Positions 9,101 to 59,774 of a DNA stretch of 64,000 bases are shown here, in pieces. The translations under genes were made by a program, and so were the position numbers. Within the stretch, counting starts at the first letter, position 1. Every line of letters begins with the position of its first letter. The stretch spans positions 12,090,001 through 12,154,000 of the forward strand of contig CM114271.1 of NCBI GenBank assembly GCA_050084515.1. The letters run 5' to 3'. The notes beneath the pieces were generated by a model. That model did no database searches. It was not told the origin of the DNA and worked only from the letters and a program-made list of their open reading frames with translations. This DNA is from Blasia pusilla (lineage: Eukaryota).

Positions 9101-9981
9101 TGTCGTGCGCATACACATCGCTACACAACAAACATCGCTGTCACCGAACACACACACAAACACGCATGATCCCATGCTAACTCATGACATCCAAACAACA
9201 AGACAAGAAGTACCAAAATATCTCCAATAAAATAAGATCGAATCTCGCTCACAACACCATAGTTCTCACATGTATGCACTCTCACATGTCTCTCTCAATG
9301 TCAAACCAAACCCACTCTCCTAATGAGAGGCTTGGGTTACACACACAAGGAAAGCAACAACAGAGCTCCGCCGCCTCATGCCAAGAGGTTCAACAAAGAG
9401 AGAATGAGCTCTCAAGCCCACTCTCCTAATGAGAGGCTTGGGTTACACACACAAGGAAAGCAACAACATAGCTCCGCCGCCTCATGCCAAGAGGTTCAAC
9501 AAAGAGAGAATGAGCTCTCAAGCTCTCTCTCCTTGAGGTATACCCCTCCCCTCTCCCAAGCTCTCTCCATGGTAACCTATGCTCCCAAGTCACCTCCTTG
9601 GCTCTTAACCTGATGTAGGAGGTCAAGGGCTACTTACCAAAAATAGAAATTGGATCATATACTCAAAATGGTACTTGCCTAAAATAGTAAGTTCCTCAAT
9701 ATGGCTCCAAATGAGCCGAAACGAAGGAAAAACCTGCTCTCTCAGGTTTTCCGGGGCCTCAACAAGTCATCCTCGACCTATTGAGTCTATCCTCCACTAC
9801 TCACGAAGGCCCTCTACTAGATCTCACCGATCTATCGTAAAAGAGGTGACAGCTGTCGTGCGTATACACATCGCTATAAAACATACATCGTTGTCACCGA
9901 ACACACACACAAACACGCACGATCCCATGCTAACTCATGGCATCCAAACAACGGGACGAGAAGTACCAAAATATCTCCAAT
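9101..9981 (-). repeat. E1 3' terminal repeat block Y-gc-X-Y
   Basis: 128-bp Y at 9101-9228 and 9854-9981 flanking X (9229-9851); X is homologous to 23144-23658 and 15947-16461 and contains a ~106-bp tandem duplication (~9311-9525). Confidence 0.85.
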
Positions 9982-10160
9982 CGCCCCCCTAGTTGATGGT
10001 TAGGTCCTTTAACTCCAGATAGCCATCTATCCCTACCTACTATGGCATACATCTCTCGGACGCTAAGAGCAAGAAGGCCGGGTGCTCATGTGGCCCCATC
10101 GTTAGTCACCTTCTTGTTATCCATGTCACAGACACAAGTCGGAATATAGAACTACCTACT

Positions 10161-10763
10161 CTATGTACATCTGGGACACATCCATCGTCCCTGAGAAACT
10201 CTAGTGAGAGATGGCATCAAACATGCCATATGCCATCCTCTTGAATATCCATCACAGACTAGCACAGTGGCTGCACCATGGGCGGAACCACACAACATAC
10301 ACCGCAAGCCTGCTGGAACTATTGCTAAGCTCAGATCAACTGTACCGTCAATGTTTGGAAGATGACATGGTGCACAGTTACGCACATGGTCCTTCCAAAC
10401 CATACCATCGCGTCCCTCCAATACGAGAACACCGGATGACAAAACCTCACGCACTCTCAAGATAGTGCACCCTACAGTCACATCCAACGTCGTGGGTGCC
10501 GTCTGCTGTAAGTAGACATAGTCTCCCTGATGAAACCTACAGATAGTAGGTCGATAATTACCTCCCCGAATAGTCGTATACCTCAACGTATCCCGATGTT
10601 GCGCAATCGCCAAATTCTCAAACGCCATGGGCATTACTCTCCAAAATAACTCAGCCCTTTGAGAACATGCTCGCATCCATACATCAAGGTCATCAAGGTT
10701 CAACACCTCACCAACATCTCGACGAATGGCGATAGTTAAATCTGGCTCTCGGCCACAAAGCAA
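10161..10763 (-). pseudogene. E1 integrase C-terminus with PHD finger
   Basis: CMLCGSAHGAATVLVCDGYSRGWHMACL...GRWMCPRC fits the C4-H-C3 PHD pattern with one Cys lost. Confidence 0.85.
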
Positions 10764-10984
10764 AAATTATGGTGAGAAAGACGTTAAGGATGCCTGCCTG
10801 CTGAATCTGTATTCCATCACCAACCACGGCAATTGAAGGTCCCAATCTCCTAGGTAACCTCTCTACAAGCCATACTTACGTAGTCCTCTCTTCATCGTCT
10901 GCACAACCCGCTACGCTAGTCCATCCGCCTCAGGATGATCTCGCGAAGTAGTGCGGTGGTTGATTAGTTCCTGATCACACAAGG

Positions 10985-11980
10985 TGTCGTGCGCCTACTC
11001 TCCTTGAACGTTAGTCTTGTTGTTGCAGAAGCGTGCGTTCAATAGGTCACGCTCTCAACGCTGATCTGCATCCAAACACGCACTCTGGTTAGTCGGGTCT
11101 TGGATCAATCAGTGGGCTAACTTTCCGAGTTCTCGTCTTGGTCTCTCATCAAGCTCACCCTTCCTAGTTTTGCGATTTACAACACGAGCAAGTCTTGCAA
11201 GACTTGGGACATACTTTCTGGTCGGTTTCGCGCCTGGCCATTCCAACTTTTTGATGGACATCCAATGAGTCCCTAACCGAGACTCGCATGAAGTGAATCT
11301 CGGATTGGAATCCAAGTGTGGCGTACAAAGTCTACTCCCTTGGATCAAGTTTGGGTTTTGAGTTCCAACGCCAAACTCTCGTTCCATCCCGTGCCTCTGA
11401 GATGCCGTTTGGCGCTCAAAGTGGGGATTCGTGTTCCAAGACATCTTGGAGAGACTCCTCCCTCACTAGTACTTCTAGGGATCTCTTAGGTCCCCCTACC
11501 TTTAGGGAAAGACACCGGGGCCTCTCCAATTGGCCCTCAACCCGATTGCTCTCACAGTGGTTTTCGGCCAATATCTCAGTCTGTACTTCTGCGTTTGATG
11601 AGATCTTTGGTGCATTGGAAGCGTCTCAAGATAAGCTCTTACTTGTCTTGAACGTATCTTGGGACAAAACGTTATGGTCTGAAACACAGTTAATTCCCCA
11701 AACGCTAGTCGTGCTCCAAAATTGGTTCTCACCTCCTTGGCAACCAACCTTCCAAGACTCAACTCATTTCAAGTCTTGGTTCGCATTTGGTCTAGGTTTC
11801 CTGGTTGTGACCACTAACGCACGAAACACACAAATGTGTTCCGCGTTTTGTCTCTTGGAATTTTCCAAGAGACCTTTCCAAATGCCTCTCCAAAGCGCAA
11901 ACATCGCAGCGTGAGTCCACTTGGGTTATGATATTCCGCTTGGCGCCTATTTGGTGTTGTTTGTTATGAGGGTCGTGACA
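10985..11980 (-). mobile_element. Solo LTR of the chromovirus family at 54570-61899, inserted in the E1 integrase
   Basis: TG...CA ends; perfect 5-bp TSD CAAGG (10980-10984 and 11981-11985); homologous to 59335-61899. Confidence 0.92.
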
Positions 11981-14100
11981 CAAGGCTTGAAACTCCTCGC
12001 GGAACTCTGTACCCTGGTCTGTCAACACCTCAGTTGATGCACCATAATGACTCAGCACTCGATCTAGGAAGGCATACGCTACTCCCTCACTTGCTTTGTC
12101 AAGCAATGCAACCAACTCTATCCACTTTGAGAAGTGCTCAACCATCACCAACACATAACGACTATGGTGCTCTGTCAAAGGCAAAGGTCTTGCAAAATCC
12201 AAACTCCATCTATAACCTAAACCCATGATCAAAAGTGGATGCAAATGTGGAGTCAGAGCATTGAACGATGCTCGGACTCGATCACACACCATGCATTTGG
12301 AAACAAACTGCTGAACGTCAATCCGCATGCCTCGCCACCAATACGGAATCTGGAGCAAGCTGTACATCCGCTTCACTCCAAAATGACCCAAATCCTCGTG
12401 GGCATGATGCACCAAACGTGCTCTCTGCGAAGGATGAGGCACTACACGCACTCTACCATCCTCCTACACTCGCAACACATGTCTGCCCTCCCACCAAAAC
12501 CGTCTAGCTTGTTGTAGGATCCGATCCCGCTCTCTACCACCCACTCTGCTCGCGACGCTGTTAGTACGCAGGTACTCCAAGACCACTCCATCGTCGTGAA
12601 TGTCTTGGCCACTTGTCGTCTCCTCTCCGGCCTCTGGATCTAAGGACTCTCCATCAGACCTCACCATCGAGGTCTTAGAAATCTGGCTCTCCATAGCCAA
12701 CAAGCCCAAATAGGCTAACGTATGCCATCTTGGCCTCAACTCCTCATCACTCTCATCATGCCAACGAGCTCCAGTCGCATCTTGCTCACTCGAGCATGGG
12801 TTACGACTCAAACCATATGTATCCTGGTTGAGCATCCCAAGTCTATGCACTACCTGGAAGTCATACTCTTGCAACAAAAGATCCCACCTCGCAAGCTTCC
12901 CTGTAAGCTTATCGGACTCCATCAACCACTTAAGTGGCTAATGATCAGTAATGATGGTAAAGGGATTTCCAAATAGATAACATCTGAAATGTGCGACAAT
13001 CCACAGTGCAGCCAAGCACTCACCCTCATACGAGCTATACTTTGTCTCTGCAGCGTTGTTCGAGCGACTAGCGTAAGCCACTACAAACTCTCTACCATCA
13101 TCATCATGTTAGATGAGCACGGCTCCAAACCCCAACATGCTCCACTCGGTATGTAACTAGAAAGGACGCCCCTTAATCGGTCTCCTCAATATGGGCACGG
13201 ACGTCAATCCGTCCTTGAGCATGTGAAATGCTCTCTCCTGCTCATCCCCCCAGTGACACTCCTGATCCATCTTGGTCAACAAGGTTAGCAGCTTCGCAAT
13301 CGAACTGAAACCCTTGACGTATCGTCGATAGAAGTTTGCCAATCCCATGAATGTACGAACTCGATTCACATCTGTAGGGCGTGGAATGCCTGAAATAGCC
13401 TCTACCTTCGTCTGTTGCACACCAAGATCCCCTAGGTATATCGTATGAGCCAAGTACTCAATTTGGTTGTAGAAGAACTTGCACTTGCCTAGATGTAGCT
13501 TCAACCCATATAACTGCAATCGTCGAAACACCTCCTCTAGATGTCGCTCATGCTCCTCAACCCTGGTGCTAAAGACTACGATGTCATCAATATAACACCT
13601 AGCAAAATCCAGACCTGCCAATATCCTATCCATGACCCTCTGAAACTCACCCGGGGCATTCTTTAACCCGAATGGTAAGAACCGCCATTGTGCAAACAAT
13701 CCTTTCCATGAGGATCCATGCCCAAAAATGTTGTCTTCTTCCTGTCCTCCAATCTAATAGGCAATTGATGGTATCCGGCTCGCAAATCCAATGAACTGAA
13801 GACCTTTGCATGTCCAATCGTATCAAAGATCTCCTCAAGGATGGGCATGGCAAACCTATCAGACTTCGTCTGCCGATAGATAGGTTGGTAATCTCCACAC
13901 ATCCGCCTATCCGTCCAGTTGCCATTCACATCCTTCCTGGCAGGCATGATAGTGGCATATGCATACTCTCTATATATGCAACATCTCCACTAGTCTTGAT
14001 CCAACGAAGTCATGGCTCCTACTCTGAATCAGAGCCCTCTCCATGTCACTGTACTTGTAGAGTCGTCGGAAGATCGGCGTGTCACTCGATAACTCAATGC
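11981..14100 (-). pseudogene. E1 pol: RT, RNaseH and integrase core
   Basis: LPFGLKNAP, YIDDIVV, GKLARW, HEDLGHFG...CMVC, WSLDF, VLTDQGTEF. Confidence 0.92.
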
Positions 14101-14539
14101 GGATCCCTACATCATACCCAAATCATGCATACTAAATGCAAAACAACTCCTATAACTCCTAAGGAATTGGTGTATCCGGCACCACTCTCCTCTTGTCAAC
14201 TTAGGGCCCATATATGGCTCCCAAGTCTCCATCGTGACTATGGTAGGACTCTCCAGCGCGGATGTCGGTGGTTGCTATCGTGCAACCCCGTCTCGGACAA
14301 TAGAACTCTCATCTCCACGTGTAGTACCCGAAACCACGCTCAATGCTATGGCTATCATCTCCTGGGGTACCTGCAAAACATCCCAAGAAGTCCAAAGGTG
14401 TCTCTCCCAATCATCCCTGGTATGTCGATCTCCTTGGGTCTCCTCCCCAGCCACTGCCTCAACCGTCTTGGTAGGCATGGGGATCACCAACGCAACAACT
14501 GTGATCTGTCGCATCCTCAAACGACGCTGCTCAGCTACT

Positions 14540-15133
14540 CCTAAGCTGAAAATCATGTCAAGCAGTTCACGTCCATTGCCTGACCTAAGAATGACGTTGT
14601 GATGCCTCTGATAGTGACGGTACTGCCGTCACTCCTATGGGGAATCCCATCGCTCGCTCTTGCTCATCGGCGTTAGGCTCCACCAACCTCTGTACTTGGT
14701 CATCCCAAACCAAGCCAAGTCCGTCCTCCTTGAATGCATAGGAAGCGGGAAAACTCACCAATGTGGCAAAGGCTGCCCGTGGCCTGCCAATCCTCTTGAC
14801 CACAATCAACCGTGGTTGATCATCTAGCCTCATTGTCTATGATCGACGGCCCAGATCCAATATAGAATCCACCAAAAAATCGAAGGGGCGCTCCACTCTC
14901 GCATATGCCCTCCGCAACACCTCGTGTGGTACCTAGTTGGTCTACCAAAGACGCGGGTGATGTGCTCATGAACCCACACTCGCCGCATCCAACAAAACTG
15001 CCGGGCCGATCCATGCGCGCATTTGATATGCACTTGTCACCAGACGGGACCTCAAATCGCCCAAAATCAATACATTCTCCATAATGTATACTGGAGGACG
15101 AGACTGATGCTCCCGAAATTGTCGCAAGATCCG
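14540..15133 (-). pseudogene. E1 DNMT3-like C5 methyltransferase, C-terminal half (motifs VI, VIII, IX, X)
   Basis: VYIMENVL; GS*AHHPRLW*TN; EQERAMGFPIGVTAVPSLSEASQRH. Confidence 0.8.
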
Positions 15134-15496
15134 TGTTGTGCGCATACACATCGCTACACAACATACATCGTTGTCACCGAACACACACACAAACACGCAC
15201 AATCCCATGCTAACTCATGGCATCCAAACAACGAGACAAGAAGTACGAAAATATCTCCAATGTTGTTGTGCGTATACACATCGCTACACAACATACATCG
15301 CTGTCACCGAACACATACACAAACACGCACAATCTCATGCTAACTCATGGCATCCAACCAACGAGACAAGAAGTACCAAAATATCTCCAATATCTCCAAT
15401 ATTTTGGTACTTCTTGTCTCGTTGTTATCGTGCGGGTTTGTGTGTGTGTTCGGTGACAACGATGTATGTTGTGTAGCGATGTGTATGCGCACGACA
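15134..15496. repeat. Y-Y-inverted-Y foldback built from the E1 terminal Y repeat
   Basis: Direct copies at 15134-15261 and 15264-15391; inverted, internally deleted copy at ~15399-15496 ending in CA. Confidence 0.85.
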
Positions 15497-15879
15497 TATT
15501 GCTCGCAGCCTTACATTACTACCGTGCTTCTCAGTATAAGCTCGCGACGATGCTGAAGGAAAAACTAATTCTGTGACGATTCTCACACTCTAAGAGCCTG
15601 GCCAACCCTTGAATTAGTCAAACACTCCACAAAGTGTTTCCGGCCAGCTCTTGGATACTCCCTTGAAGATATGGCCATTGTCTGATCAGTTGATAACGAC
15701 CCTGTCTAACACAATTGGCGTGTACACCCGCCTAAGCTACGATTGCTACGATTTTTCCCTCTCTCCCTCCTTTCTACCTATCACAGTGTGGCACTAAATG
15801 CATTCAAATTCTACCCTATAAGTCGCTACCTGAACCTCCAACTCACAACACAATTCTCCCTCTCCTTCTCCTTCTCCCT

Positions 15880-15884
<5 letters not shown>

Positions 15885-15946
<62 letters not shown>
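15885..15946. repeat. (CT)n microsatellite, about 31 units
   Basis: Read directly from sequence. Confidence 0.98.
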
Positions 15947-15949
<3 letters not shown>

Positions 15950-16570
15950 CACGTCTTTTAGGATAGATCGGTGAGATCTAGTAGAGTGCCTTTGTGAGTA
16001 GTGGAGAACACGCTCAGTAGGTTGAGGATGACCTACTGAGGCCCCGGAAAACCTGAGAGAGCAGGTTTCCATTTCGTTTCGGCTCATTTGGAGCCATATT
16101 GAGGAACTTACTATTCTAGGTAAGTACCATTTTGAGTATATGATCCACTTTCTATTTTTGTTAAGTGGCCCTTGACCTCCTACATTAGGTCAAGAGCCAA
16201 GGAGATGACTTGGGAGCATAACTTACCATGGAGAGAGCTTGGGAGAGGGGAGGGGTATACCTCAAGGAGAGAGAGCTTGAGAGCTCATTCTCTCTTTGTT
16301 GAATCTCTTGGCATGAGGCGGTGGAGCTATGGTGTTGCTTGCCTTGTGTGAGTAACCCAAACCTCTCATTAGGAGAGTGGGTTTGGTTTGACATTGAGAG
16401 AGACATGTGAGAAAGCACACACTTGAGAGCTATGGTGTTGAGAGAGATTGGATCTTATTTTACAAAGAGAGAATGAGTGAGTGAGAGAGCTTCATGGGGG
16501 AGCTTGCTGGTTGTTCAATGTTTGGTGCAGGTTGGGGGACCGTGTTCCCTGCTTCATGGCTCATGAGAGT
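15947..16570 (+). mobile_element. 5' end of another E1-subfamily copy (X repeat, PBS position, start of leader)
   Basis: Starts TGTCAC; reverse-complement homologue of 23030-23658. Confidence 0.88.
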
Positions 16571-17375
16571 GCTCACCGAAGCAAGAGCCGTGCGAGTTTG
16601 TTGTTTTTCTTTGCGTATTTTTTGTACGGGAGAGTGACACACGGAAGCGCTGCCCAATTTTTGATAGAAATTGAGTATGGGGGGTGGATTGCTCTATGGT
16701 GATGCTCTCGGGAGCACCATGTAGCTTGCTGATTTGTGTTCTCACAGGTTTTACAGTTTTGTTGGGAGAAATCAGCGTGGAAGCGCTGCCATATTTTGTG
16801 TAGGAGAAAGAGACATTGGGCTTTACGACAGTCCCCATCAGTTTTTACTAGAATGTCTAATTCAAAATACTTTTTAACGTTGTCGTAGATCGTGAAGCTA
16901 TGCACGTTGTGCAATAAATGGTGCGCAACTAGGAGTTGCGAGCAAAAAGTTATGGTCAATCTTGCAAAGTTGCCATTGCTAGGCGATTTTTAGGGTTAAA
17001 TTGTTCAAACCCTAAACCAGGCGCCGTGCCAGCAGCGGCCGTCATGGTCATAGTCCCCGTCAACGATCAACCATCGCCATCAACAGTCAACCATCACCAT
17101 CAAAGGTCAATCGTCGCTCTCAGCCGCTGCTCTAAACAAGTTACTCCGGCCACGAAAATGACCGCACAGGTAGTAGGCCAACGCTTTTATGGGGGCAAAA
17201 ACCTAAACGGTGTCTTGGTTGCGGCGGTCCGGGTGTAACTACCCTGCCCCAACGGTTAGAGACTACATCCTTTGCTTCGTGCTTTGTGCTTTGAGCTTCA
17301 CATAAGACCGAAGCGCCTTCTTCTCTTGTGATGTGCCTTTTACCACGCAAAAGCGCTTCGGTACGAAGTGGTGCT

Positions 17376-19823: not shown

Positions 19824-20032
19824 AGAGAGAGCTTGAGAGCTCACTCTCTCTTTGTTGAACCTCTTAGCATGAGGCGGCGGAGCTATGGTCCCTTGCCTTG
19901 TGAGTGCAACCCAAGCCTCTCATTAGAAGAGTGGGTTTGGTTTGACATGAGAGAGAGTGCACACCTTTGAGAGCTATGGTGTGAGATTGTGTAGAGAGAG
20001 ATTGGATCTTACTTTACAAAGAGAGAATAAGA
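19824..20032 (+). repeat. Inverted partial copy of the E1 X repeat (transcribed part plus PBS position)
   Basis: Near-identical reverse complement of ~23127-23335. Confidence 0.85.
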
Positions 20033-22354: not shown

Positions 22355-24741
22355 GATGACCCTTGTGCCCTTCTCACTTGATCACTCTTGCCTCGTGAGT
22401 AATCCCTCAATCATTCATCCCAAACCTGCGACACTCGATCTACACTCTCCCTCCCCGAGACGTATAACGTGCGGCAACACGCGGCGTGGTGCGGCAAATC
22501 GACCAGGCTATCATCTCATCGAAAACCTACCTTCAAATCCGGACATCCCACATAGGTCTATGTCCCCTAAAACACATACATAAATGATGCTCTCAGCATC
22601 CACACACCCAATATCCCCAAATAAACTACCCAAATCCCAGAATCCCTCACACGTGCAGGGTAAAGGACTAGAATGAGTAACCTAAACACATGTCGATGTC
22701 GCTCCTCAACAACTGAAAATCTGGACCCCAACTCGGAGACAACTCCTCCAATCAGCAAGTCATACTCCTCCCGTACTGACGTTGCTCAAAACTCCTCCAT
22801 AGACGGTGCGGTTCCTGCGGAACGGTGCAGCGTTGCAGGCGACACGGAACGGCTACGAACGGCACGACCCTCGATGATGGGATGTGGCACTCGGAGACAT
22901 ACCCTCCTCAATCAACAATAAACCCACACTCTGCTCCACAATGCCAAAGCGGCTCCGTGATCGAGATGGTGCGGTGCAAAGAACAATCCAAGCAACCCTT
23001 GCTCCAGTGAGCACTCCCATGAACCGCTGAACGGGGAACACGGTCCCCAACCTGCAAAAACAGCGAGTGACCAGGAAGCTCCCCCATGAAGCTCTCTCAC
23101 TCTCTCATTCTCTCTTTATCTCTTTCTCTTATTCTCTCTTTGTAAAGTAAGATCCAGTCTCTCTCTACACAATCTCACACCATAGCTCTCAAAGGTGTGC
23201 ACTCTCTATCATGTCAAACCAAACCCACTCTTCTAATGAGAGGCTTGGATTACACTCACAAGGCAAGGGACCATAGCTCCGCCGCCTCATGCCAAGAGGT
23301 TCAACAAAGAGAGAGTGAGCTCTCAAGCTCTCTCTCCTTGGGATATATACCCCTCCCCTCTCCCAAGCTCTCTCCATGGTAACCTATTCTCCCAAGTCAC
23401 CTCCTTGGCTCTTGACCTGATGTAGGAGGTCAAGGGCCACTTACCAAAAATAGAAAGTTGATCATATACTCAAAATGATACTTTCCTAAAATAGTAAGTT
23501 CCTCAATATGGCTCCAAATGAGCCAAAACGAAGGGGAAACCTGGTCTCTCAGGTTTCCTAGGGCCTCAGCAGGTCATCCTCGACCTCTCAACCCTGTCCT
23601 CCACTTCTCTTGAAGACGCTCTACTAGATCTCACCGATATATCCTAAAGGACGTGACAATAGAGAGTGAGTAGCCCGTGACAGGTTTATAGTGTGGCTCG
23701 GGGAAGGGTCAAGGGTACGAGTTAGAATGTGGGGGGTCGGTCGCGCCTAGATGTATCGAAAGAGAACATAATGTAGATCATCTAGTATTGAAAAAAGGTA
23801 AAAGACATGATAGAAAGAACGAGCAAAGCTCGTGGAGCTGGCTCAGTGCAGTAAATTACACTATAGAGAGCAATCTCGTGAATAGATATGAAAAACATCA
23901 GCACAAATTTGATGAGACGCTCACAGCCGCCGATGATTGGGAAGCCCGAACGAAGGAGGGAAGCAAGAAGGAAATAAACAAATTCGTAACGGAACGCAGC
24001 CTCCACTCGGAAACAATAACTCGGGTTACAGACACGCTCGCATCCGAGGTAAACCTGGTAGCATCGGACAATCAAGAGTACGACAATGGTGAGTGGGCGC
24101 CACGTGGACATATGCAGCTAGTTCAAAGAGAAAAGGAAGGTTGAGGCATGTGGAAGAGGGATCATAAACCACTCCCACATGTAAAGGCCGTAAAGACCAA
24201 ACTAACGCATATACTAGGAAGGAGGAAAAGGAGAAATGGTTTACAGCCAAAACTTAGTCATGGTTAATTGTTGAGAGAGACCTTCACATCTTCCACTTTG
24301 TGACAGTCGTCTTTCCCTCCATCCCTCTCTCTCAAACGTTCGTTTACACCTTCTGGTTCCAATTTTCGAAATCGACGAGCTGTGCAATTCTGCTTTCCTC
24401 TCTTGTCCTCTGCTCTCAGGATGTACATGTTCGTCACAGATCGGGAAGTTAGTTCACTTCTGTTGCTTGAGTCAGCTCGAGAGGGTTCGGTCCGTGGTAC
24501 AATTTTGGCGCAACATGCAGTAGCATTCGGGCAAGACGTGAGCGATAGGTTGGTTGTTCAAGATTGATCGGGAGACCGTTTGGTGGGGGCGGTTGACGGC
24601 CTCAGAGGGAGAGACGTTGAAGGAATTGTATTCGGGGTCGACGGTAAGAGTGCAAAGAGGAGAGCCGGTTGGTAGTGAGGAGCAGCATGAACAGGTGCAG
24701 TAGAGGATTTAAGGACTGTTTTCCCCCGATGCTTTAGGCTC

Positions 24742-27700
24742 ATGACGCGCAGAGAAGCTGGGGCTTCGTCCAGTAGCAGGCCGCAAGTGAAGCGGTTGCG
24801 CTTGGCTCGAAATCGTCCTGTACCCAGCCATGGTGCAACGCGTTTGGGTACTTCTTCCTTGGTAGCTAACAACTCACTGTCGTTTCGTCGATTTGGACCA
24901 AGGACTGCTGAGGGATTCTCACTCATTTATATCAGTAAATATGGAAGTTCAAAGAATGAAAACTTCATCAGCGTGGGGACCAGCAAGCTATTGCCTCAAA
25001 TTGGTCCAGTTTAGAATGATAAACCAGAATTTGTTATCTTCTTGTGCAAGTTGGATTTGTACGAGGGCACTCTACAATGTATTTCGTACGGACTCTTTAA
25101 ATCGATGAGCCTAGAAGTTAGTGATTGAGCATGGCTGGGAAGCTCACCGATTTGCTAACCGATTTCAGAGCGTTGGTTTCTTGAGTTATGGAGAGGCTAG
25201 TTGAATTTTGGATCTGCAATGATGGTTCACGACTTGGGAAACTTTTAATTATGATTGGTTACTTTGATTCGTGGATAGCGACATTGCCCGCAAGATTGTA
25301 GCTGTTATCTTGAAATCTCTGCATGATATTTCTGACGGCAATCAATCGAATCTCTCCCTGTTTACTGGGATGTGAAGTCCAATCATTCGACTGAATGCTG
25401 TTACCTGCTTGTCTCAGGATGCCGTAAATCACAACATTGATCGGTTTCAACCTCAAGTGGATCCTGTGTCTTTGGCTACGAATGTTGAGAATGGCGAGCT
25501 TGCGGATTGTAACCCTAATATCTCCCAAGTTTCCCTCCCAGCTAGACTACAAACTCCCCGAGTCTTGACGACCGATTCCCTCCACGGAAATTCAAATACA
25601 GACCAGCACGGCTCTGGCATTCAACTCGACATCAGCAAGGAATTTCTGAGTAATAAGAAAGTGCAGCAGGGAGAGACACTGTCCACTTCTGTGAGTGACA
25701 ACTCTGCGTTGCTGAAATGTGGTTCGTCATCTCACGACGGCGAAAAAAGTGGCCTTCCTGGAACCGGTTGCAATGAATCAAATTATGAAATGGTAGAGCC
25801 GATTCAGGATGTACTCCGTATTTCAGATATACAGGAACCTGTGTTGGCTAAATCTGTTTTAACTAAGTTGACCAATCCAGAGTCGAATGGGCCTCACGGT
25901 GAAGTTAGTGCTAACAAACCAATTGTGTCCACTCATCTCAGCTCTGAGCTTAGTCGACGTGGACCTTGGGATGGTTGTGAAAGTTCGGTCAGATTGGATG
26001 ATCATCCAGAAAGACAGGAAGATCTCCTTCCAGAATTGAACGGAACAGGGAGTTATCCCGAGTCCTATTCTCAAATTTCAGAGACGGAAATTTCTCCTGC
26101 AGATCTAGGGGCGCCTGAGGGAAATGATAGAAGTCCAACACATGGCTATGGAGTCCATGGAGCCATGAATCAAGCTCCAACTATAACCACTGACGAGTTA
26201 GATGCACCACCTAAAGGTACGACAATTTTGGATGACTTTGAGAATCAGTCACGTGAGATCTCACATCAGTTTTCGAGTCAATCAAGACCAAGTGTTAGCG
26301 AGGTGGTTGAGTTTGCATGGTCGACAGGTACAAGTACCATCCTTGAAGAAGTTGCTACGTTGAGAACCCAGCCAGTTACAGTCCAGGAAGAGCTCCAACC
26401 ACTTCTCGGCGGCCGTCTAGCTGCCAATTCACATGTCACAGGTGGTCTGGAATCCTCTTATACTGTCCAAAATTCTACAGGAGCACTAAATTATGTGACA
26501 ACCAGAGGTGAGGTGGATCTCAGAGGAGACCCTGAGATTGAAATACCTTTAGGAGGGGTTTTTCAGTCTGAGCCCAATGAAGATGCAGAGGAGAGAAAAA
26601 GTACAGTGGTATTTGCTTCTGAAGATGGGTTCTTCTCCGCTCCTGGTCTGCAAGTGGATGAAAGAGACCGTGCAGCATTGCTGTCATCTGAAGGCAGACT
26701 GCTGACTGCTTCCAGTCAACAAATAATAGAGAGAACAGGTGTAGACTTGGGAGCAGGAGATACTGTGACAGGAAATGTTGAGCCCAATGGTACCACCACG
26801 GTTTTACTGTCTGAGCCCAATGTACATGAGCAGGAGAGAATAAGTACGCCAGTGGTAGCTTCTGAAGATGTGTTTTTCTCTGCTCCTAGTCTACAAGTGG
26901 AGGAAAGTGTTGGTGAACTGTCACTGTCTTCGTCTTCTCAACGTAGACTTCTGACTGTCTCCAGTCAACGAATGGTGGAGAGAATAGGTGTAGCCATGGA
27001 ATCAGCAAGTGACATTGCTGCAGGAAACTTTGAGGCCAATGGTACCACACGAAGGCATATGCAAGAAAGTTCTGCTTTAGAAATGCCTCCCCACCCGGAA
27101 CCAGAATCTTCAAACATTGCACTTGCACATGAAGATCCCTTGCTGGTTGATGATAGGAGTGCTAATAACAAGCTGCCTGAAGAGACTGCTGAACGATCAG
27201 ATCTCAGGAGCTCCCAAGATCAGAAGGCAAATGAGGGTGATGCTCTTGTCTGCCCAATTTGCATGGAACCATGGACAAACACCGGCGATCATCGAATCTG
27301 GTACTAATTTCTTGATGTGCTTAGGATGGCTTGACTTGTAAACTGTGTACTCATGTCAAGTAGTATAATTAAATTTCATATTTGAGAGTCTCATCTGCAT
27401 TGGGTTGACAGTATTCTGAAACAAATGTGGCAAGGTTCAATTCACAACTTATGATATCACCCTCTTTAGTAAAGGATTCATCGTCAAAATCATGTTTATT
27501 TGCAGCTCGCTTGCATGTGGCCATCTTTTTGGGAAGTCATGCATAAGACGCTGGCTTAAGCAGACAGGGAAAAAGCACGGCAAAGTACGTACAAAAGGAA
27601 ATCATCTGATGCTTTTGATCTATCTGGAAGTAAAGATTGTCTCTTTAGTTTCAAATTGCCCATCAAGTTTCAGGGACATGTGAAGTTTAGAAATCGACAG

Positions 27701-30700: not shown

Positions 30701-32122
30701 TACTAGGCCTTGTCTTTTAACTATTTCAAACCCTATCACTTTCTGCCGTACAGACTAGCCAGAGTAGCCAGACCAGTACAAACTAGTTGAAAATTTGATG
30801 AGTGATGAGAACGTGTCACCTAAAATCACCAGAGCTCTCTTCCGCTATTGTAGAGATTTGAAATCTTTTGATAGTGCTCAAAGACAGTATGTAGATGCTC
30901 TAGAGATTTCATATCTGTTATCGTGTTGGATCTCAATTGGTGGTCCAAGTGCTGTTTCTTTTTAATACACTCAGTATCGTGTCGGGAAGAGGCTATGCCT
31001 TAACTGCTTTAGGGATGTTTTTGCAGAATGGGTCTTTGCTGATTTTTGACTTACGACAAACATCATCTCCCATTGCCTCATGGAGTGGTGCCAACATTCG
31101 TCCAATTCATACTCTCCAAGCAGTTGCTGGTCAATCGAGGCAGGAGGTAGTGAAGAGAGGTGGGAAAGGAATCCTAAGTGCATCCAGCAGTGGTGTGTAC
31201 TTTTGGGAGCTGGGCTCTTCAGCAGATATGAGTGAAACAGTAAGGTAATACAATGAACTTCCTCTTTGTTCAGGCGGACATTCTCGTGCATGGTATGTTT
31301 TGCTTTGGGACAACTGGAAAAGAATGACTCTTGTATGCAACTTGTACAACTGAGTGATTCACAACATTCATGCAAAAGAGAAATGCATGTGCACAACCTC
31401 AAATTCTGTTCCACGAAATGTTCTAGTTTCGAAACTAAAGTTTTCAGGGATCTAATTGATGCGCTGGTGCATGTTGCAGGCCATACTGTATCTCAGATTT
31501 CCAGAGGGAAAAACTCTGCGTCTCTCTTGTTTATGAGTCCTTCATAAAATCTGCAGTAGCTTCCTTTAGACCATCTCCTTTGGCTCACACTGATTCCTCT
31601 TCATGTACACCTGGATCATCTGAAGTGGACAACTCGAGCCAGCCATTAGGTGCCACTTTAGAGCCTAGTTCAACTACACGCCCAACCACTCAAGATAGCC
31701 CATCTCATTGCATTTTTAGCGAGACTAACATGCTTTCTTCTCTGCAAAGTAATGAAGAAAGCCATGTCAGCGATACCAGTATTACGTCTGGAGAGAGTAC
31801 CTCAGGAAATAGGTCTTTGTGGCGGTGGGAAGTGGGAAGAGCTATGGTGGGTCACAAGAGTCACAGCGTGATGCCTCGATCTGCGATCATACCAGAGCGG
31901 GATCTCACAACAGGTTTCAAACCGCTGTTTGCTAGTGGAGATGAAGGCTCAAACTCCGTTTGGTTGTGGAATATGGAATCGCTCGGAGTCGTACAGACTC
32001 TTATTCCCCACCAATCACCAGTTCTAGATGTAAAATACGTACAGGTTGGAGGAAGAGATGTGTTGGGTTGTGTAAGTGAGAGAACTTTTCAGCTCTACCG
32101 GCGGCTGTCTTCGACACTTTAA
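24742..32122 (+). CDS. RFWD3: RFWD3-like RING finger and WD40 E3 ubiquitin ligase. Predicted exons: 24742-24861 (tentative), 25418-27300, 27506-27584, 27875-27973, 28127-28171, 28461-28496, 28721-29182, 29296-29406, 29699-29850, 30170-30209, 30550-30612, 31027-31244, 31480-32122
   Basis: Split RING [34 protein letters not shown]...CPHC; coiled coil; WD40 blades (AIRDIRFSP, PWSCAWDP...YSGLQNGSLLIFDLR, ASGDE, HQSPVLDVK); GT-AG introns with consistent phases. The first exon is the least certain. Confidence 0.9.
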
Positions 32123-37908: not shown

Positions 37909-40900
37909 AAAATTTTTTTTAACAGTCATTTTAACTTAATTTTTAATAATTTTATTAGTTAAAAAAATTTAATATAATTTTTTTCAAAATTTTCAACACG
38001 AATTTTCAAAATGAATTGGAGGGTCTCTCCAATAATAACAAGTGTGCGCCCCCCTCTCTCTAGCAACATATTTAAATACTTTAGGAGTAATGAAACATGT
38101 TGGTTTTGCAATAAAATGGCGACTTAGTGGAGTGAAATGCCGAGAATCGATGGGCTACATTTGTATATGCGATAAGGTTACATATGTAAATCGAAGTGAG
38201 ATGTGGATAAAACATTTTTGTAACAAAAAGAGTGGTGAATATGTATTTTGGAAATAAGATTCCTGCGGTTCAACGTGAGTGAATATTGAAGTAAGGTATG
38301 TAGCCACTAAAAGGTAGTGGTTCTATGGCATGTAGCCATTGGAACGTTGTGGTATTGTGGATTTGAAGTATTTTCCAAAAATGATTATTATGAAGTAAGC
38401 CTTCATAAATGGACTAGAAATACCTGGATTTAAAATAAAATAAAATTCGAAACTAAAATTTAATCATGGAAAAGAATTCATAGTTATGAAAATAATCAAA
38501 GAAAATGCATTTTTCATTTGATCACTAATATTCAAATTAAAATGATCTTATTTAAGTTCATACCATATATTTATGGTAATTTTTAAAAATCTAAAATTAT
38601 TTTTTAACCCATTTAATTTAAATTATTTTTCCCATATACTATTGGATAATTTTCAAATTCTTTTATAAATCATTTACATACATATGAGTATAATTACTAT
38701 ATAAGTCGTGAGGATATGATCGTATTGGTTTGGTAAGTCATAAAAATGAATTTAAATCAATGAAGTCATAATTTGAGTCATTTTGTACACAAGTCATTAA
38801 ATGGTGAGTTATAAAAACCAACTGTCTTATATGGATAGTTAGTCTAGATATGGCTGAGCAGAGACGAATGCGAGTGTCATCCATGCCGTGACGTCCACGA
38901 GTTAGCGCATTGCCTACAGGATCTCTAGAGGCATTGGCTGGGGATGAGATGAGGGAAGATAGGCACCCATGGACTTCTTGGGACGTCGTTCGAGTAGAGA
39001 GTGAGAAGGCAGCTAGAGTAGCATATGTTCATTTTTCAAGTGTGGAGCATGATGTGGGAGGTCAGAGAGGAGTAACTCTAGCGGAGGTGGCTAGGATTGC
39101 TACATAGAAATCAAAGCCGAAGGTTGTGTTCTCTTCGAGTGAGGTCACGATGGAGACTTGGCAGCTTGCGATAAGTCTCGAGTTGACAAAAGGAGAGAGA
39201 CGGCAGATGTATACATAGGTTTGTGAGAGGGCATGTGGGTTGTTTTGCCTGCAATATGAGAGACTTGGGTACTTTGAAGTCTCCCGCGATACGAATAGCT
39301 AGATTTGGCTAGTGATACGCCAATCTTTCGTCGATCCTACAGGTATTCTGACATGGAGCAAGCCTTGATTCTGAGTAGGAGTCAAGACTTCTGGGAGGCA
39401 GGATTGTTAGAGTTATTGCATGGGGAGTATGCGTATGCCACAATCACACCAAAAAATAAGGATATATGGCAACTAGATGGATAGATGGATGTGTGGAGAT
39501 TACCGTCCTATCAACCTAAAGATGAGGTCAGATCGGTACGCCATGCTTACTCCTGCGGAGATCTTTGATGCGGTAGGGCATGCAAAGATATTGATTACTT
39601 TAGATCTCAGTGCTGGCTATCATCAACTTCCTATTAGTGTGGAGGACAGGGAGCAGACAAGATTTTGGGGGACAGATCATATCAAGAGATATTGTTTGCA
39701 TCAGTGGCGGTTCTTAGCATTTGGGTTGAAGAACGCTCCTGTGGAGTTCCAGAGAGTGAAGGATAGGATTCTGGCTAGCTTTGATTTTGTACGATGTTAC
39801 ATAGATGATATTCTTATCTTCAATTCCTCGTCCGAGAGCATGAGCGACACCTGGAGAAGGTGTTTCAACGATTGCAGTTACATGGACTGAAGTTACATCT
39901 GGGAAAGTGCAGGTTCTTTCAAGAACAGATCGAGTACTTAGGACACACCATAGATCTAAGTGGGTTAGGTGTTCAGCTAACGAAGGTGGAGGCTATTGCG
40001 CAAATTCCATGGCCTATAGATGTGAGTCAAGTCGGAGCATTTTTAGGACTAGCAAACTTCTATCGAGGATGTGTCAAGGGTTTTAGTGCGATGGTGAAGC
40101 CTTTGAGCTTGTTGATTAGACTTTATCAAGTTTGGCATTGGGGAGATGATGAGGAGCAATCATTTTAGGAGCTCAAGGATAGGTTGATGTCCTCATCCAT
40201 TCTACAGAGATTGGTTATGGGTCGTCCATTCTAGTTACATACGGATTGGAGCATGTTGGATTAAGGAGTGATGCTTACTCGCAGAGATAACGAGGAGAGG
40301 GAGTTTTTTGTGGCTTATGTGAGTTGATCGAACAACATTGTAGAGACAAAGTACAATTCCTACAAGAGAGAGTGCTTGGCTGTAGTATGGGACGTGGCAC
40401 ATTTTAGATGCTGTCTATTCGGGAATCCTTTCACACTTATCATTGATCATCAACCGTTTAAATGGTTGATGGAGTCCGACAAGCTGATGGGGTAGCTTTC
40501 CAAGTGGACTCTATTACTACAATAGTACTAGTTTGAGATGGTTCATAGGCCAACTAGTTGGCTAATCCAAGATGCAGATATTTTGAGTCGCAACCCATGC
40601 CCGAGTCAGAGATACGACATATATAGGAGCTCGATGGCACGAAGAGAGTGATGAGGAGATGGTGCCTGCTTGGCACAAATCTGTCTTTCTTTATTGCTTG
40701 ATTATGTCAGATCAGTAGCAGGTGGTGACTTTAGTGGTGGGATCAAATGATGAGTCTCAAGATCCGGAGGTCAATAAGGAGGCGGCAAGTAGTCGTGATA
40801 TCCATGGCGATGTGCACGTGGAGGTTGTGGAGTTTCTATGGAGTGGCATCATAGCGAGCACAATGAATAATACTAGGGAGCGGGATCGGATCCTATAGAG

Positions 40901-41291
40901 AGGTTCACGTGGGAGGGAACACACATTTTACTGGTATGGGGAGATGGTAGGGTCCGAGTGGTGCCTCATCCTTCCCATCGAGGTTTCATACGCATACACA
41001 TCGCTACACAACATACATCACTGGTCACATCCACACCACACAACACCGATCTTCCCCACACACGGGTAGATCCACACATGTACAAAAATCAACTCATACA
41101 TATACATCGAGATCACACAACTCTCATGTGAAAATAAAGAGTAGTAAAAACGGCACACCCGGTCTAAAACTCCACTCCTCAATCTACATTGACATATTGA
41201 GCCTTGTCCACCCTGTGCTATCAAGAAATCCAGACGCTAGCACCTAGTCCTAACTCACACACACGAGCAAGAATGGTACTCCAACGGCCCT

Positions 41292-44200
41292 ACATGAGAA
41301 AGATGTCAAGGGGCTGGTGGGAATTCATTGTTTGCAGGTAGGCAAGCGAGTTGCCTCGGTAGGGAGCCCCTGGATATGCTGGTTGGCATTTTATTGTCGT
41401 TTTTTCGTTCAAAAAGTTGTGCGCGGAATCGCTGTTCATTTTTCTTCTTAGATCTTGCTGGTGCAGGTGAAGAGGGACAATAGCAGAGTGGGAGTCGAGC
41501 AAGAGTGCTTGGGTGCAGCGCAAAATAATGCTGGAGCGACAAGAGAAAGGTGCACAACGGGAGTATAGAGAAAGAAGCATATTGAGAGCTTGTAGCCGCC
41601 AAGGGGCTAGGGTTGCAAAGGTGTCTAGGGCTAGGGTTAGGTCGCAGGTGACGGCGAGCTGAAGCCGGGGCGGAGGCAGATGGAAGGCGGAATAGGGCGG
41701 ACAGAGCTGAGGGCGGCGAGCTACAGAGCCGTAGCCCTTGGCCGCGACCCTTCCCTTCCCTTCCACGTTACCCCCCCTCCCCCCCCACGTGGTTGGGAGC
41801 ACCATGTTCGGCGCCTTCCACATCAGAGAGACATACGTGGTACGGGGCAGACATGGTTGGTAGGAGCAGACGTGGAACGGGACAGACGTGGTCGGTAGGA
41901 ACAGATATGGTAGGAGCAGGGCGGCGGATGTATTAGGGGCCAAGGTGGACGTAGTAGGATGACATGGTAGTGGCGTGGGAGACGTGGTAGACGGGAAGCC
42001 ATGGTTGGGGTCGGACGTGTTTGAGTTGAGTTACGTAGTGGGAGAGCGTTGGTGAGACTTGGTATTTCACGAGCATGGTGGGATTTGCGACGGGAGTTTG
42101 GCACTTATTACGAGTCAGTTGGGGTTCGACTCATTAGTTCTTCACCGCTTGGGATTTGTGAGGATTGTGATGGAGACACACTTGTCGATGCTGATGGGTA
42201 GTCTGCATCCATTGATGGGAAGTTTGATGCATGTCGAGGAAAGTGTTGTGTTGCGGAAGTTGCCGTACCACATGGAGGAGTGAGTGTTGACGATGGCGTA
42301 GGTTGGAGGGCGTGATCATGTCACCCATTCGAGTCCCTTTTCCCACGCTTATCTTATATGATTGAGAGTGCTAGGTATGGGGTAGTTGTTAGGGCTAGAT
42401 GGGTGTAGCGATGGTGACGAGTGTAGTCTCCATGCATGTGTAGCATGTATGTGGATATACGGTGGTTGCCAAGTAGGGATCACCCTTTTTAGTCAAGAGT
42501 GTCGGTAGTTTAGGTGAGTTAGTTGGGAGGCTCATGGTGAGCCCGAGTGTTGAGTGTGCGTGAGGCCAGGTGTGTCATTACGGGATTACCATTAGCGTAG
42601 GTGAGCTAGTGAGGAGTGTGGGAGACTCTTGGTGAGTCTAAGTGATTGAGCGGGTGAGACAGGGTTGTCATCACGGCGTTCTTCTTGTGTTCAAAAGAAC
42701 GGGGTAGTGCGAGCAGTAGTAGTGGTGTGACACGGAGTGGAGTGAAATACCGAGGGGTTACGAGTGAGGAGCTACCTCGAATTCCAGCCATGGTTGGATC
42801 GTCATCACTGAACAACAGGTTTGGTGACGAGATCGCAGATGGAGACAATGTCACTTGGAAGGAGATGGACGACATGGGCCACCGGGGCATGCGTTGTTTC
42901 TCGGGTGCAGTGAGCACCATCGACTTAGATGACTTCATCCAAGAGTTCGACACGTGGTGCGATTTCCAGGAGATATGGACCCCGACACGGTTCAACCCTT
43001 TCATGGCATGGAAGGGATTATTCCAGCACTTGGAGGGTCTTCCGATGGATGATTACATAGAGTTCCAATCTTTATACTCTATAGAGATTGATGCCTGGAG
43101 GGTGTATTGGGCTCCACGGTATGTGTCCACTAATGGCCGCAAGGTGTATGATGGGATAGTGAGAGTGGAGAGACCTACTCCATCAGCCCAGGGACTAGAT
43201 GGAGAGGATGGCAGTGAGAGTGGTGAGATGCCAGAGACCTCACATGGTAGAGGACCATCGAGTTTCAGTCCTACGATGGAGTTCTTCTCACAGTTGGGGA
43301 GGAGCTACCAAGGCGTGTTGATAGACAAGCTGAAGAGTCTACAGGATTTTCATCGGAGATCACGTGAGAGTCTGAGGGAGGCGTTCATACGCAGGCGACG
43401 GTTGATTGTTTCCACATATGGGGTGAGTGAGGCGTAGTGAGTGCAGTATTGGTACGGGGTGTTGGATGAGGAGCTATGGAGGAGAGTTCGGGATGCGATG
43501 TTGCTTCACACAGCAAAGCCCATATTGAAGGTGATATTCGAGTTGTCTGAGTGGGTAGAGCTCAACATGAGTGAGGAGGAGGTGATGACCATGGGATTTT
43601 CATGGGATTCGACATATTGATGAGTAGGAGTAGACCCACAGGTGCCCCAGTATGCACCAATACCACGAGAGTGGGGTGGTGGGCCTAGAGAGCAGGGCGG
43701 GTATCGTGAGCCCATGAGGCAATGGTGCGTACCGACATATGTTTCCCAGTAGAGACCAAGATTGGCTTGTTGGACGTGTGGTGGGCCACATAGGCACAAA
43801 GACTGCCCAGAGCATGGTAGAGGGCCTAGGGTGCCTTCGAGTGTTCAGGAGCCACCTAGGATGGCCCCACCACAGTTGCAGTGTGATCATTGTCATCGAT
43901 ATGGTCACACTAGGGATAGGTCTTTTGATCTTCGCCAAGCGGTACGTCCAGAGGTAGGCAAAGGGCCTGGGGGCGAGAGAGTTGGTGGAGATCGAGGAGT
44001 TGATGATCGTGGTGGTAGAGTGCCATCATCACTCAGGGGAGATGGAGGACGTGCAACTGATGCAGCGCTCCTCACTCGCATCGATCAGTTGGAGCAGAGG
44101 ATTGCTGCCATGACAATGATGTAGCCAGTGATAGGCACGGAGCCGAGAGTAGTTAGTGTGGCTCCAGCCTCCACGTCGTATCAGGATACGGGGGAGGACT

Positions 44201-44420
44201 ATACGGGGTTGAGGTTTATGTGCAGTGCAACTCAGGTTGAGGCTGCTGCGGTGGTGACTTGGGGTGCTGCGAGAATAATCGAGCCATCAAGAGGTGGGGT
44301 TTAGATTGACCCACAGGAGGGGACCGATGGGTGACAGGCCAGGGTTCCCTAGTCGTTTACATTTTCAGAGGCACTACATACACCGTCGATGGTGCCTCGA
44401 CAACCAATAGTACACACGAG
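41292..44420 (+). mobile_element. Inverted duplicate of the E2 leader and gag, inside the E2 3' repeat block
   Basis: Reverse-complement homologue of ~50520-53642; gag 42673-44124 with CWTCGGPHRHKDC and CDHCHRYGH knuckles. Confidence 0.88.
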
Positions 44421-59332: not shown

Positions 59333-59774
59333 CGTGTCGTGTGCCTACTCTCTTTGAACGTTAATCTTTGTTGTTGCGGAAGCGTGCATTCAGTAGGTCA
59401 TGCTCTCAACGTTGATCTACATCCAAACACGCACTTTGGTTAGTCGGGTCTGGATCAATCAGCGGGCTAATTTTTGAGTTCTCGTCTCGGTCTCACATTA
59501 AGCTCAACTTTCCTAGTTTCACGGTTTACAAAACAGGCAAGTCTCAAAAGACTTGGGACAAACTTTTTGGTCGGTTCAAGAACCTCAAATTTTTTTCGTG
59601 CCTGACGGTTCCAAATATCTGATGGACATCCAATGAGTCCCTAACCGAGACTCACACAAAATGAATCATGGGTCGAAATCCAAGTGTGGCGTACAAAATT
59701 CCTTGGATCACGTTTGGATTTCGAGTTCCAACGCCAAACTCCCGTTCCATCCCGTGCCCTTGAGATGTTGTTTG

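Follow-up and report, generated by a model that had tools for sequence, protein, structure and literature searches.

How a retrotransposon that carries a DDE integrase could come to end in split direct repeats is the question raised by a locus in Blasia pusilla (GenBank assembly GCA_050084515.1, contig CM114271.1). The stretch analysed, hereafter the window, comprises 64,000 nucleotides (positions 12,090,001 to 12,154,000 of the forward strand), and the element in question is, on its domain order and homology, a Ty3/gypsy retrotransposon of the Gypsy-Dnmt3 kind. A first-pass annotation, made from the sequence alone, had described a polypurine tract followed by a repeat Y, a longer repeat X and Y again, and had proposed a non-canonical replication route equivalent to a permuted circle with two long terminal repeats (LTRs), opened at the Y/X boundary. 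The sequence features described below make it probable that, in this family, reverse transcription and the integrase define their ends at different places.

Split repeats in the window and in related loci

The first element is read on the minus strand, where the order from 9992 to 9101 is a G-run, a first copy of Y, a 2-nt GC spacer, X, a second copy of Y and unrelated flank; the repeats termed Y and X in the window are called B and A in related loci. The G-run (CTAGGGGGGCG, 9982–9992), a putative polypurine tract, adjoins the internal copy Y1 (B1, 128 bp, 9854–9981), which begins at the first base past it. X (A2, 623 bp, 9229–9851) starts with TGTCAC at 9851 and ends in TTATTTT at 9229, and the terminal copy of the 128-bp repeat, Y2 (B2, 9101–9228), ends in CGCACGACA at 9101, where the unrelated flank begins. 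Y1 and Y2 are identical at 118 of 128 positions. With a Y profile, nhmmer recovered only 7 copies across the 64 kb (E 5e-37 to 2e-20), and every one lies within one element family. Allowing at most one mismatch, there are two occurrences of the G-run motif in the window (9982–9992 and 45017–45027), both on the minus strand as the first-pass annotation had noted; its accompanying statement that Y, X and Y follow each tract describes 9101–9992 correctly and needs amending at 45017, where an inverted segment parts the terminal copy of the second-subfamily repeat, Y', from X. Between the subfamilies, Y and Y' agree at only 84–95 positions of 128–138, against 92–94% identity within copies, and this combination of high identity within copies and low identity between subfamilies fits both Y copies being regenerated from one template in each cycle.

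A local origin of this arrangement is readily imagined, with X as an ordinary LTR and the extra Y produced by tandem duplication, solo-LTR formation or nested insertion, and the window lends itself to such an account, being a nest of transposons that has undergone much rearrangement, with a number of inverted junctions, and in which neither copy is clean. Related loci were used to judge it. They were obtained from metagenome contigs by alignment of a methylase piece, the best 80 of 151 relatives being retained; self-comparison was run on the 36 loci of at least 8 kb, and A, B and the leader of one copy were mapped on all 80, with duplicates removed by their flanks. Self-comparison revealed the complete series A1...G-run-B1-A2-B2 in L007, L014, L036 and L074; B1-A2-B2 was present in L021 and L052, and A1...B1-A2 was ended by the contig end in L013. 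Complete B-A-B 3' ends thus recur in five distinct cases (L007/L036, L014, L021, L052 and L074), with one more cut by a contig end, and this recurrence identifies the layout as a family trait. At the 5' side, B stood beside A in none of the 21 distinct related ends, in all of which A runs straight into the leader, so that copies with X and Y at both ends, named in the first-pass annotation as the observation that would reduce the window cases to chance, did not appear. The three 5' ends in the window likewise consist of A only; those given earlier as 23658, 15947 and 54124 do lack a preceding Y and do run into the leader, the third lying in fact at 54122. Given that the two Y copies co-evolve within each subfamily, that the series of G-run, B, two nucleotides, A and B recurs in the five distinct loci and the one cut short, that target duplications (see below) lie outside A1 and B2, and that B is missing from all 21 related 5' ends, a chance rearrangement is refuted by the related loci unless their contigs are misassemblies, and its probability is close to negligible.

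The 3' ends are more varied. Among 18 distinct first-B copies, 15 lie directly after the G-run; 17 of the 18 could be read beyond B, 6 of them continuing with two nucleotides and TGTCATGA (A2) and 11 entering unrelated flank, and the remaining one is cut. The B-only ends include an A-internal-B form without terminal repeat (L029, L051, L061 and L067), of which two copies have perfect 4-bp target duplications, and further cases in L024, L025, L037, L040, L055, L075 and L080, L028 being the same as L029. Two complete identical LTRs at both ends, the canonical Ty3/gypsy feature, were not found, the 3' ends being either B-A-B or B only.

Coding region and target duplications

The domain order of the family is gag, protease, Dnmt3-type C5 methylase, reverse transcriptase, RNase H, DDE integrase and PHD finger. 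In the first copy, Pfam recognised RVT_1, Integrase_H2C2 with rve and, at the C-terminus, a PHD finger; in the second it recognised RT_RNaseH and PHD. The methylase is supported by a Pfam match to PF00145 (DNA_methylase) upstream of the reverse transcriptase (48823–49143, minus strand, E 1.5e-7, 31.6 bits), by the motifs FGG, PCQ, ENV and MGFP...GQAMD in the translations, and by the PDB matches of the methylase domain of one relative (P0030), all 26 of which are DNMT3A, DNMT3B or DNMT3C. The gag, leader and protease open reading frames (ORFs) of several copies gave no Pfam match, and the gag and protease parts were named by motifs and by homology to Marchantia "Retrotransposon gag" proteins. 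The best named relatives are liverwort and moss proteins (Marchantia, Calypogeia and Sphagnum): the closest to the methylase piece (64–72% identity) are Marchantia polymorpha proteins of 1000–1300 residues, several of which carry reverse transcriptase and RNase H downstream of the methylase in one protein, and the gag-like ORF has Marchantia and Calypogeia matches at 44–50%. Many M. polymorpha "hypothetical proteins" of 500–1300 amino acids (P0019–P0027, P0040, P0051 and P0057–P0058) represent parts of this Gypsy family with its methylase; in UniRef, some of these proteins bear the name DNA (cytosine-5)-methyltransferase, and they could pass for host methylase genes.

The internal region of the first element (9993–15133, minus strand) is decayed, and its domains were assigned from Pfam and motifs. 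It comprises the C-terminal half of the C5 methylase (15133–14588, motifs ENV and MGFP..GQAMD), the reverse transcriptase (13989–13160), the integrase zinc domain and rve (12463–11795, resumed at about 10984–10770) and the PHD finger (10766–10164), the integrase being split by a foreign 990-bp insertion (10984–11973). From 15133 to 9993 it is collinear at the protein level with 49020 to 45028 of the second copy, and because it stops within the methylase domain, at 15133, the element is 5'-truncated.

The layout A1-internal-B1-A2-B2 is diagnostic of PAT, Ngaro and VIPER elements (PMC4157794), and de Mendoza et al. (PMC5890265) equate the repeat structure of a related element of Klebsormidium with that of a DIRS retrotransposon, in the parts of that paper that concern it. 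One might accordingly suppose that a tyrosine recombinase, supplied from elsewhere or by the host, inserts the cDNA as a closed circle, the DDE integrase being irrelevant. The coding evidence speaks otherwise. As the first-pass annotation had stated, the element has a DDE integrase and no visible recombinase: rve and Integrase_H2C2 were found, and no tyrosine recombinase domain was detected in the scanned ORFs of the window or in any of the 20 ORFs of at least 90 amino acids in L067, a related locus that shares the order of reverse transcriptase, RNase H, rve and PHD. Target-site duplications are not expected from tyrosine-recombinase insertion. In the related loci, perfect 4-bp duplications flank the start of A and the end of the terminal B in five of seven distinct complete copies (CATA in L007/L036, AAGG in L014, TCTC in L074, TACA in L051 and TGTT in L067), the termini being TGTC...GACA; a perfect 4-bp match has a chance of 1/256 per copy. 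Scoring duplications at these two points had been suggested beforehand, and their presence indicates insertion of the DDE-integrase type rather than by a tyrosine recombinase; together with the TG...CA termini they form a DDE signature, which makes the recombinase route highly improbable.

The second copy in the window supplies a further duplication. The block 40983–54122 interrupts an older, plus-oriented family copy (38819–40982 and 54123–54569), the halves of which are contiguous in element coordinates. The 5-mer TCGAG at 40978–40982 has its partner, TAGAG, at 54123–54127, with 4 of 5 positions identical, and the corresponding 5-mer occurs once in each of two other family copies (CCCA|GCAAG|CACG and CGCA|GAGAG|CACG). 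Since it stands on both flanks of the block and is single elsewhere, it is read as a target duplication of the integrase type, extending from the start of X to the end of Y'.

On the minus strand, from 54122 to 44408, the second copy runs X, leader, coding region, G-run, Y', GT and X. Its 5' X, of the second subfamily (53643–54122), starts with TGACAT at 54122 and has a TATA-like box about 30–32 nt ahead of a candidate self-primer arm (53806–53818), the complementary primer-binding arm lying at 53630–53642 (13 nt). The internal region (45028–53642) encodes a gag with a CCHC-like motif, a protease (50479–50045, D-S-G motif), the C5 methylase that contains the PF00145 match (49467–48222), RNase H (47131–46595) and the PHD finger (45589–45134). 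Downstream, at 44877–45027, follow the G-run (45027–45017), Y'1 (45016 to 44879) and the GT spacer (44878–44877), and then the 3' X (44408–44876), which starts with TGTCAC at 44876 and is about 89% identical to the 5' X. Beyond it lies a plus-strand, inverted segment of the leader and the 5' half of the internal coding region (41291–44405, 80% identical to 53643 to 50528), the left junction of which falls on the 13-nt self-primer/primer-site inverted repeat (41292–41304). The terminal piece (40984–41305, minus strand) consists of the R-U5 part of X, that is, the repeated and unique 5' regions (last 176 bp, 41305 to 41130), an 8-nt remnant of the primer-binding site (ACATGAGA, 41129 to 41122) and Y'2 (41121 to 40984). 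Y'1 and Y'2 are identical at 126 of 134 positions.

Junction sequences and the proposed route

At the Y1/X boundary of the first element lies a perfect 10-bp palindrome, GACA-GC-TGTC (GACAGCTGTC, 9857–9848), in which CA and TG are separated by the 2-nt spacer and which is proposed from its sequence as the integrase site. In six related copies the B/A palindrome GACA-NN-TGTC has GC, TC, AC or AT as its spacer, and the second window copy shows the degenerate form GATA-GT-TGTC. A always starts with TGTCA in the related loci. Of Y/B, the window and these loci share a conserved final stretch of ~40 nt, the remainder not being alignable. Conservation between lineages extends to the G-run and the ~25 nt before it (..GGACCTAACCA.CA.CTAGGGGGG), and in the lineage comparison B begins 2 nt past the run.

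These positions bear on where the LTR is to be drawn. If X were a canonical LTR and Y a 3' untranslated segment, Y2 would have to stem from insertion beside an older Y or from gene conversion; X does start with TG, end with CA, occur at both ends and precede a primer-binding arm. No purine-rich tract adjoins X or A, however, the G-run sitting 128–140 nt upstream beside Y; the target duplications lie outside Y2 and not at the end of X; and Y2 is flanked by unrelated host or other sequence in every distinct copy. We regard this assignment, like a recombinase route, as highly improbable. With the primer-site arm adjoining the end of A, a polypurine tract next to the 3' LTR and a primer site next to the 5' LTR fit only if the LTR is defined as B+A.

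No primer-binding site of the transfer RNA (tRNA) type (TGG...) was found by eye after X in the window, and the idea of a tRNA primer was dropped, self-primer arms taking its place. In three lineages, a segment 174–178 nt before the end of X/A forms a perfect inverted repeat with the first bases after it, the primer-binding arm overlapping the last 1–3 nt of A. The arm pairs are CTCATTCTCTCTTTGT and ACAAAGAGAGAATGAG in window subfamily A (16 nt), ATCTTTCTCATGT and ACATGAGAAAGAT in window subfamily B (13 nt), and AACATAGTTCTTTGAGT and ACTCAAAGAACTATGTT in related loci (17 nt), and because their sequences differ by lineage while staying complementary, they covary. In the first element, X contains a 106-bp internal tandem duplication (9307–9427 and 9413–9533), with the arm CTCATTCTCTCTTTGT in each copy. 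Arms of 13–17 nt (c16, the second-subfamily 5' X, L014 and L011) were matched in length by none of 200 shuffles, and those of 11–12 nt (c23, L007 and L067) by 1–2 of 200; the best perfect arm of L007 lies at a different place, and L074 and L051 have no perfect arm of at least 9 nt. Across distinct related 5' ends, the best complement stands at the expected place in 13 of 20, with 12–16 of 17 matches. We infer that the covarying arms mark the end of A as the end of U5 and place the transcript start inside A.

The joint between A2 and B2 is equally regular. In eight distinct cases, it always connects the end of A, with 0–10 nt of the primer-binding site, to the first bases past the G-run. The join of U5 to U3 (the unique 3' region) is precise in five of the eight (window 9229/9228, L007/L036, L021, L052 and, with one substitution, L014); the second window copy retains 8 nt of the primer-binding site, L016/L019 has 10 nt of it and 5 nt of filler, and in L074 a filler of 17 nt is accompanied by the two final nucleotides of the G-run motif. 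In retroviral two-LTR circles most junctions are exact, while some contain remnants of the primer site or short fillers, and the A2/B2 joints look like them in varying between copies in the manner of LTR-LTR circle junctions. As the joint lies downstream of the presumed polyadenylation site, it would not be inheritable via RNA and would have to be made anew in each cycle.

The same joints help to weigh an origin by partial tandem dimerisation, in which the basic unit is X-internal-Y and B-A-B arises from head-to-tail units, the second of them mostly deleted. Such an origin accords with the 11:6 ratio of B-only to B-A-B 3' ends, with the two B-only copies that have perfect target duplications, and with the resemblance of the B/A boundary to an end-to-end joint of integrated termini. 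It predicts a random deletion joint, yet all eight joints fall at the end of A and at the start past the G-run; moreover, under the standard LTR scheme, an X-internal-Y unit without the downstream promoter half could not regenerate X from its own transcript. We consider this origin unlikely, if less so than the other alternatives.

The reading that we favour, with separate reverse-transcription and integrase ends, would proceed as follows. Reverse transcription would be canonical, with an LTR of Y+X (B+A). The transcript would start within X, about 175 nt before its end, U5 ending where X ends; minus-strand synthesis would be self-primed in the manner of Tf1, the first 11–17 nt of the transcript pairing with the sequence right after X, and plus-strand synthesis would start just past the conserved G-run, such that U3 begins with Y. 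The integrase would ignore the LTR tips and cut the palindrome GACA-NN-TGTC inside the LTR, at the Y/X boundary, so that integrated copies begin with X (TGTC...), end with Y (...GACA) and are flanked by a 4–5 bp target duplication. A replication-competent copy must keep the whole Y+X downstream of the coding region and would therefore be cut from a tandem two-LTR intermediate, either a two-LTR circle closed by end joining or a cDNA extended from its right end onto its left end by a plus-strand jump. The product would be X-internal-Y.X-j-Y, where j is the U5/U3 joint and Y2 a mere stub supplying the right-hand integrase site. If a single LTR-to-LTR span of linear cDNA, or a one-LTR circle, were cut instead, X-internal-Y without repeats would result, and this form, having no downstream promoter half, should be a dead end.

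Several observations weigh against this route or loosen its parts. The transcript start, the primer roles, palindrome cleavage by the integrase and the form of the intermediate are inferred from sequence; what was observed directly is the anatomy, the target duplications, the junction sequences and the conservation and covariation of the cis elements. No clean full copy is present in the window, and the sole block bounded by a duplication (40983–54122) is internally rearranged, its duplication being imperfect (4/5) and leaving one extra base at 40983 unaccounted for. In the related loci, the target duplication matches at only 3 of 4 positions in L061 and is lacking in L029, the G-run is missing from 3 of the 18 first-B copies, and the arm was not recovered at the expected place in 7 of the 20 5' ends. 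The G-run motif count is weak by itself, at least two matches being reached in 10 of 100 window shuffles, and it is the position of the run, not the number of matches, that carries weight. The 11 B-only ends, instead of marking an integration route of their own, could stem from recombination between B1 and B2 after insertion or from short-read assembly skipping A2. Finally, a randomly opened two-LTR circle predicts 5' ends of the form A-j-B.A-leader, which occur in none of the 21 cases, against five or six B.A-j-B ends. Extension of the right end of linear cDNA explains the missing class more easily than random opening of a circle, and as intermediate either a ligated circle or a linear tandem-LTR cDNA fits. 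A route equivalent to the permuted two-LTR circle opened at Y/X, as the first-pass annotation had inferred, is nevertheless supported by the absence of B from the 21 5' ends, the recurrence of B-A-B, the target duplications, the palindrome and the position of the joint.

A bolder extension of this route can be offered only tentatively, at rather less than even probability. Every replication-competent insertion might have to pass through the tandem-LTR molecule, whether the "dead-end" two-LTR circle or its linear equivalent, the integrase sites having moved from the tips to the internal palindrome and the enzyme acting on its own cDNA like a cut-out transposase; a DIRS-like layout could thus be derived from an LTR element without a change of enzyme.

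Neighbouring copies, precedents and implications

Further copies of X and Y are scattered through the window. On the plus strand, an X with ~125 bp of leader occupies 15947–16585 (X, 15947–16461), its self-primer arm at 16284–16299 being complementary to a primer-binding arm at 16462–16477 (16 nt); a (CT)n microsatellite of ~65 bp (15880–15946) lies directly upstream. This X had been assumed to open the element terminating at 9101, an assignment its orientation contradicts, inverted as it is relative to the X sequences at 9851 and 23658. On the minus strand, a 5' X (23658 to 23144) with leader (22998–23658) belongs to a family copy whose gag-protease part reaches ~20040, and its arms (23304–23314 and 23133–23143) are perfect over 11 nt. 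Positions 23658 and 9101 were considered as the ends of one insertion; their flanks (..CTAT and AATT..) disagree, so they are not presented as one copy. The possibility that the leader is a diverged Y, raised by a loose MAFFT alignment, was set aside, the leader being conserved as a different sequence in the 21 related 5' ends.

A cluster of two tandem Y copies (15134–15261 and 15263–15392, both minus) and, head to head with them, a partial inverted Y (15399–15504) sits exactly at the methylase truncation point of the first element. Its outer ends are TGTC...ACA, and no matching target duplication was found at its flanks (15134–15504). Among the related loci, L031 and L054 have an inverted B in the place expected for A, and L019 has a scrambled 3' part (12308–12916) comparable to the window rearrangements. 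An inverted fragment of R, U5 and the primer site at 19824–20032 is 97.6% identical to the neighbouring 5' X (23127–23335). Inverted rearrangements within family copies have junctions on the self-primer/primer-site inverted repeat (41292–41304, 19824–20032 and L019) and may be fold-back by-products of self-priming.

Between 16585 and 19824, a third gypsy lineage is represented by its reverse transcriptase and integrase; it is a distant one (~30% identical in amino acids to the reverse transcriptase of the family), and since these domains are flanked by the inverted X and the inverted X fragment, the apparent "element 2" is a composite. A further family copy at 61900–62991 has its PHD-finger region inverted and duplicated (61961–62247 against 62921–62635), with a junction near 62636. 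The 990-bp insertion in the first element (10984–11973) is matched by sequence found upstream of another gypsy gag-protease in a better state of preservation (59334–59774 and 61313–61892; 57327–59138) with zf-CCHC, aspartyl protease, Retrotrans_gag and Ty3_capsid domains, and probably represents a solo LTR from that other family; the integrase position at ~11978 also serves as a breakpoint at 54569. Two possible host genes were seen, a 643-aa open frame at 25376–27304 with no Pfam match and 31460–32119, with an RFWD3 WD40 match below threshold (E 4.9e-12, 46.3 bits against a Pfam cut-off of 47).

The layout has a published precedent. De Mendoza et al. (2018, Nat Commun 9:1341; PMC5890265) describe KnitGypsy-Dnmt3 of the charophyte alga Klebsormidium nitens, a Gypsy LTR element with a Dnmt3-type methylase inside Pol, and a figure legend of that paper refers to Gypsy-Dnmt3 elements with "DIRS-like" A-coding-B-A-B repeats; a passage of a 2026 preprint mentions "streptophytes (Gypsy-DNMT3)". 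The present element shares with this description the C5 methylase in Pol, the series of reverse transcriptase, RNase H and DDE integrase, and the repeats; it differs in host, and kinship to the algal elements is set by description rather than by sequence comparison, with no Klebsormidium protein named among the 46 protein matches. The statement in the first-pass annotation that Gypsy elements have two full LTRs overlooks this published element. A literature search returned the pattern from de Mendoza et al. alone, with no mechanism described in the parts of the paper covered; its supplements may hold more. Within the published text that was covered, no description was found of the target duplications, the internal palindrome, the primer-defined A/B joint, the self-primer, the bryophyte distribution or the repeat-less A-internal-B form. 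The split-repeat layout in a Gypsy-Dnmt3 element is accordingly already in print, and the mechanistic reading appears new.

Parts of the proposed route resemble other known systems. PAT-like, Ngaro, VIPER and TOC1 elements of the DIRS order have the order A1-internal-B1-A2-B2, with the B1A2 pair downstream of the coding region (PMC4157794, in the portion concerned with these repeats), and the present element shares these split direct repeats. The DIRS order has a tyrosine recombinase and, in DIRS-group members, a Dam-like adenine methylase, in contrast to the DDE integrase (rve), Dnmt3-like C5 methylase, TG...CA termini and 4-bp target duplications found here. Reverse transcription is self-primed in the Tf1 mechanism. 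The present family has a similar arrangement on the evidence of sequence complementarity, and Neumann et al. (2019; PMC6317226, in the part on that clade) predict self-priming, in place of a tRNA primer, for the moss and club-moss Tcn1 clade. Tf1/sushi-Tcn1 elements differ in possessing ordinary LTRs and a chromodomain; in the present family the repeats are split and a PHD finger follows the integrase. Cleavage of two-LTR circles at their palindromic LTR-LTR junction has been reported for the integrases of foamy virus and of human immunodeficiency virus type 1 (as summarised in PMC1180852 and PMC1905944), and the cut proposed here at an internal CA..TG palindrome would similarly give a linear, integration-ready molecule from a circle. 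In retroviruses, going by those summaries, the palindrome is the circle junction and the route at best auxiliary, whereas here the palindrome is fixed within each LTR and the route would be obligatory.

On the practical side, software that expects two equal LTRs will mis-bound or miss such elements, above all in the repeat-less X-internal-Y form. LTR retrotransposons and retroviruses are taught to integrate the tips of linear cDNA, with circles as by-products. In the family described here, the integrated ends would lie ~115–130 bp inward of the left tip that reverse transcription produces. A whole LTR downstream would require a tandem-LTR intermediate, which makes the family a natural system in which to ask if molecules with an LTR-LTR junction are ever productive. 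The family bears as well on the evolution of split direct repeats and on the recognition of internal sites by integrases, and with the element abundant among the annotated proteins of the tractable model plant Marchantia polymorpha, the prediction is testable.

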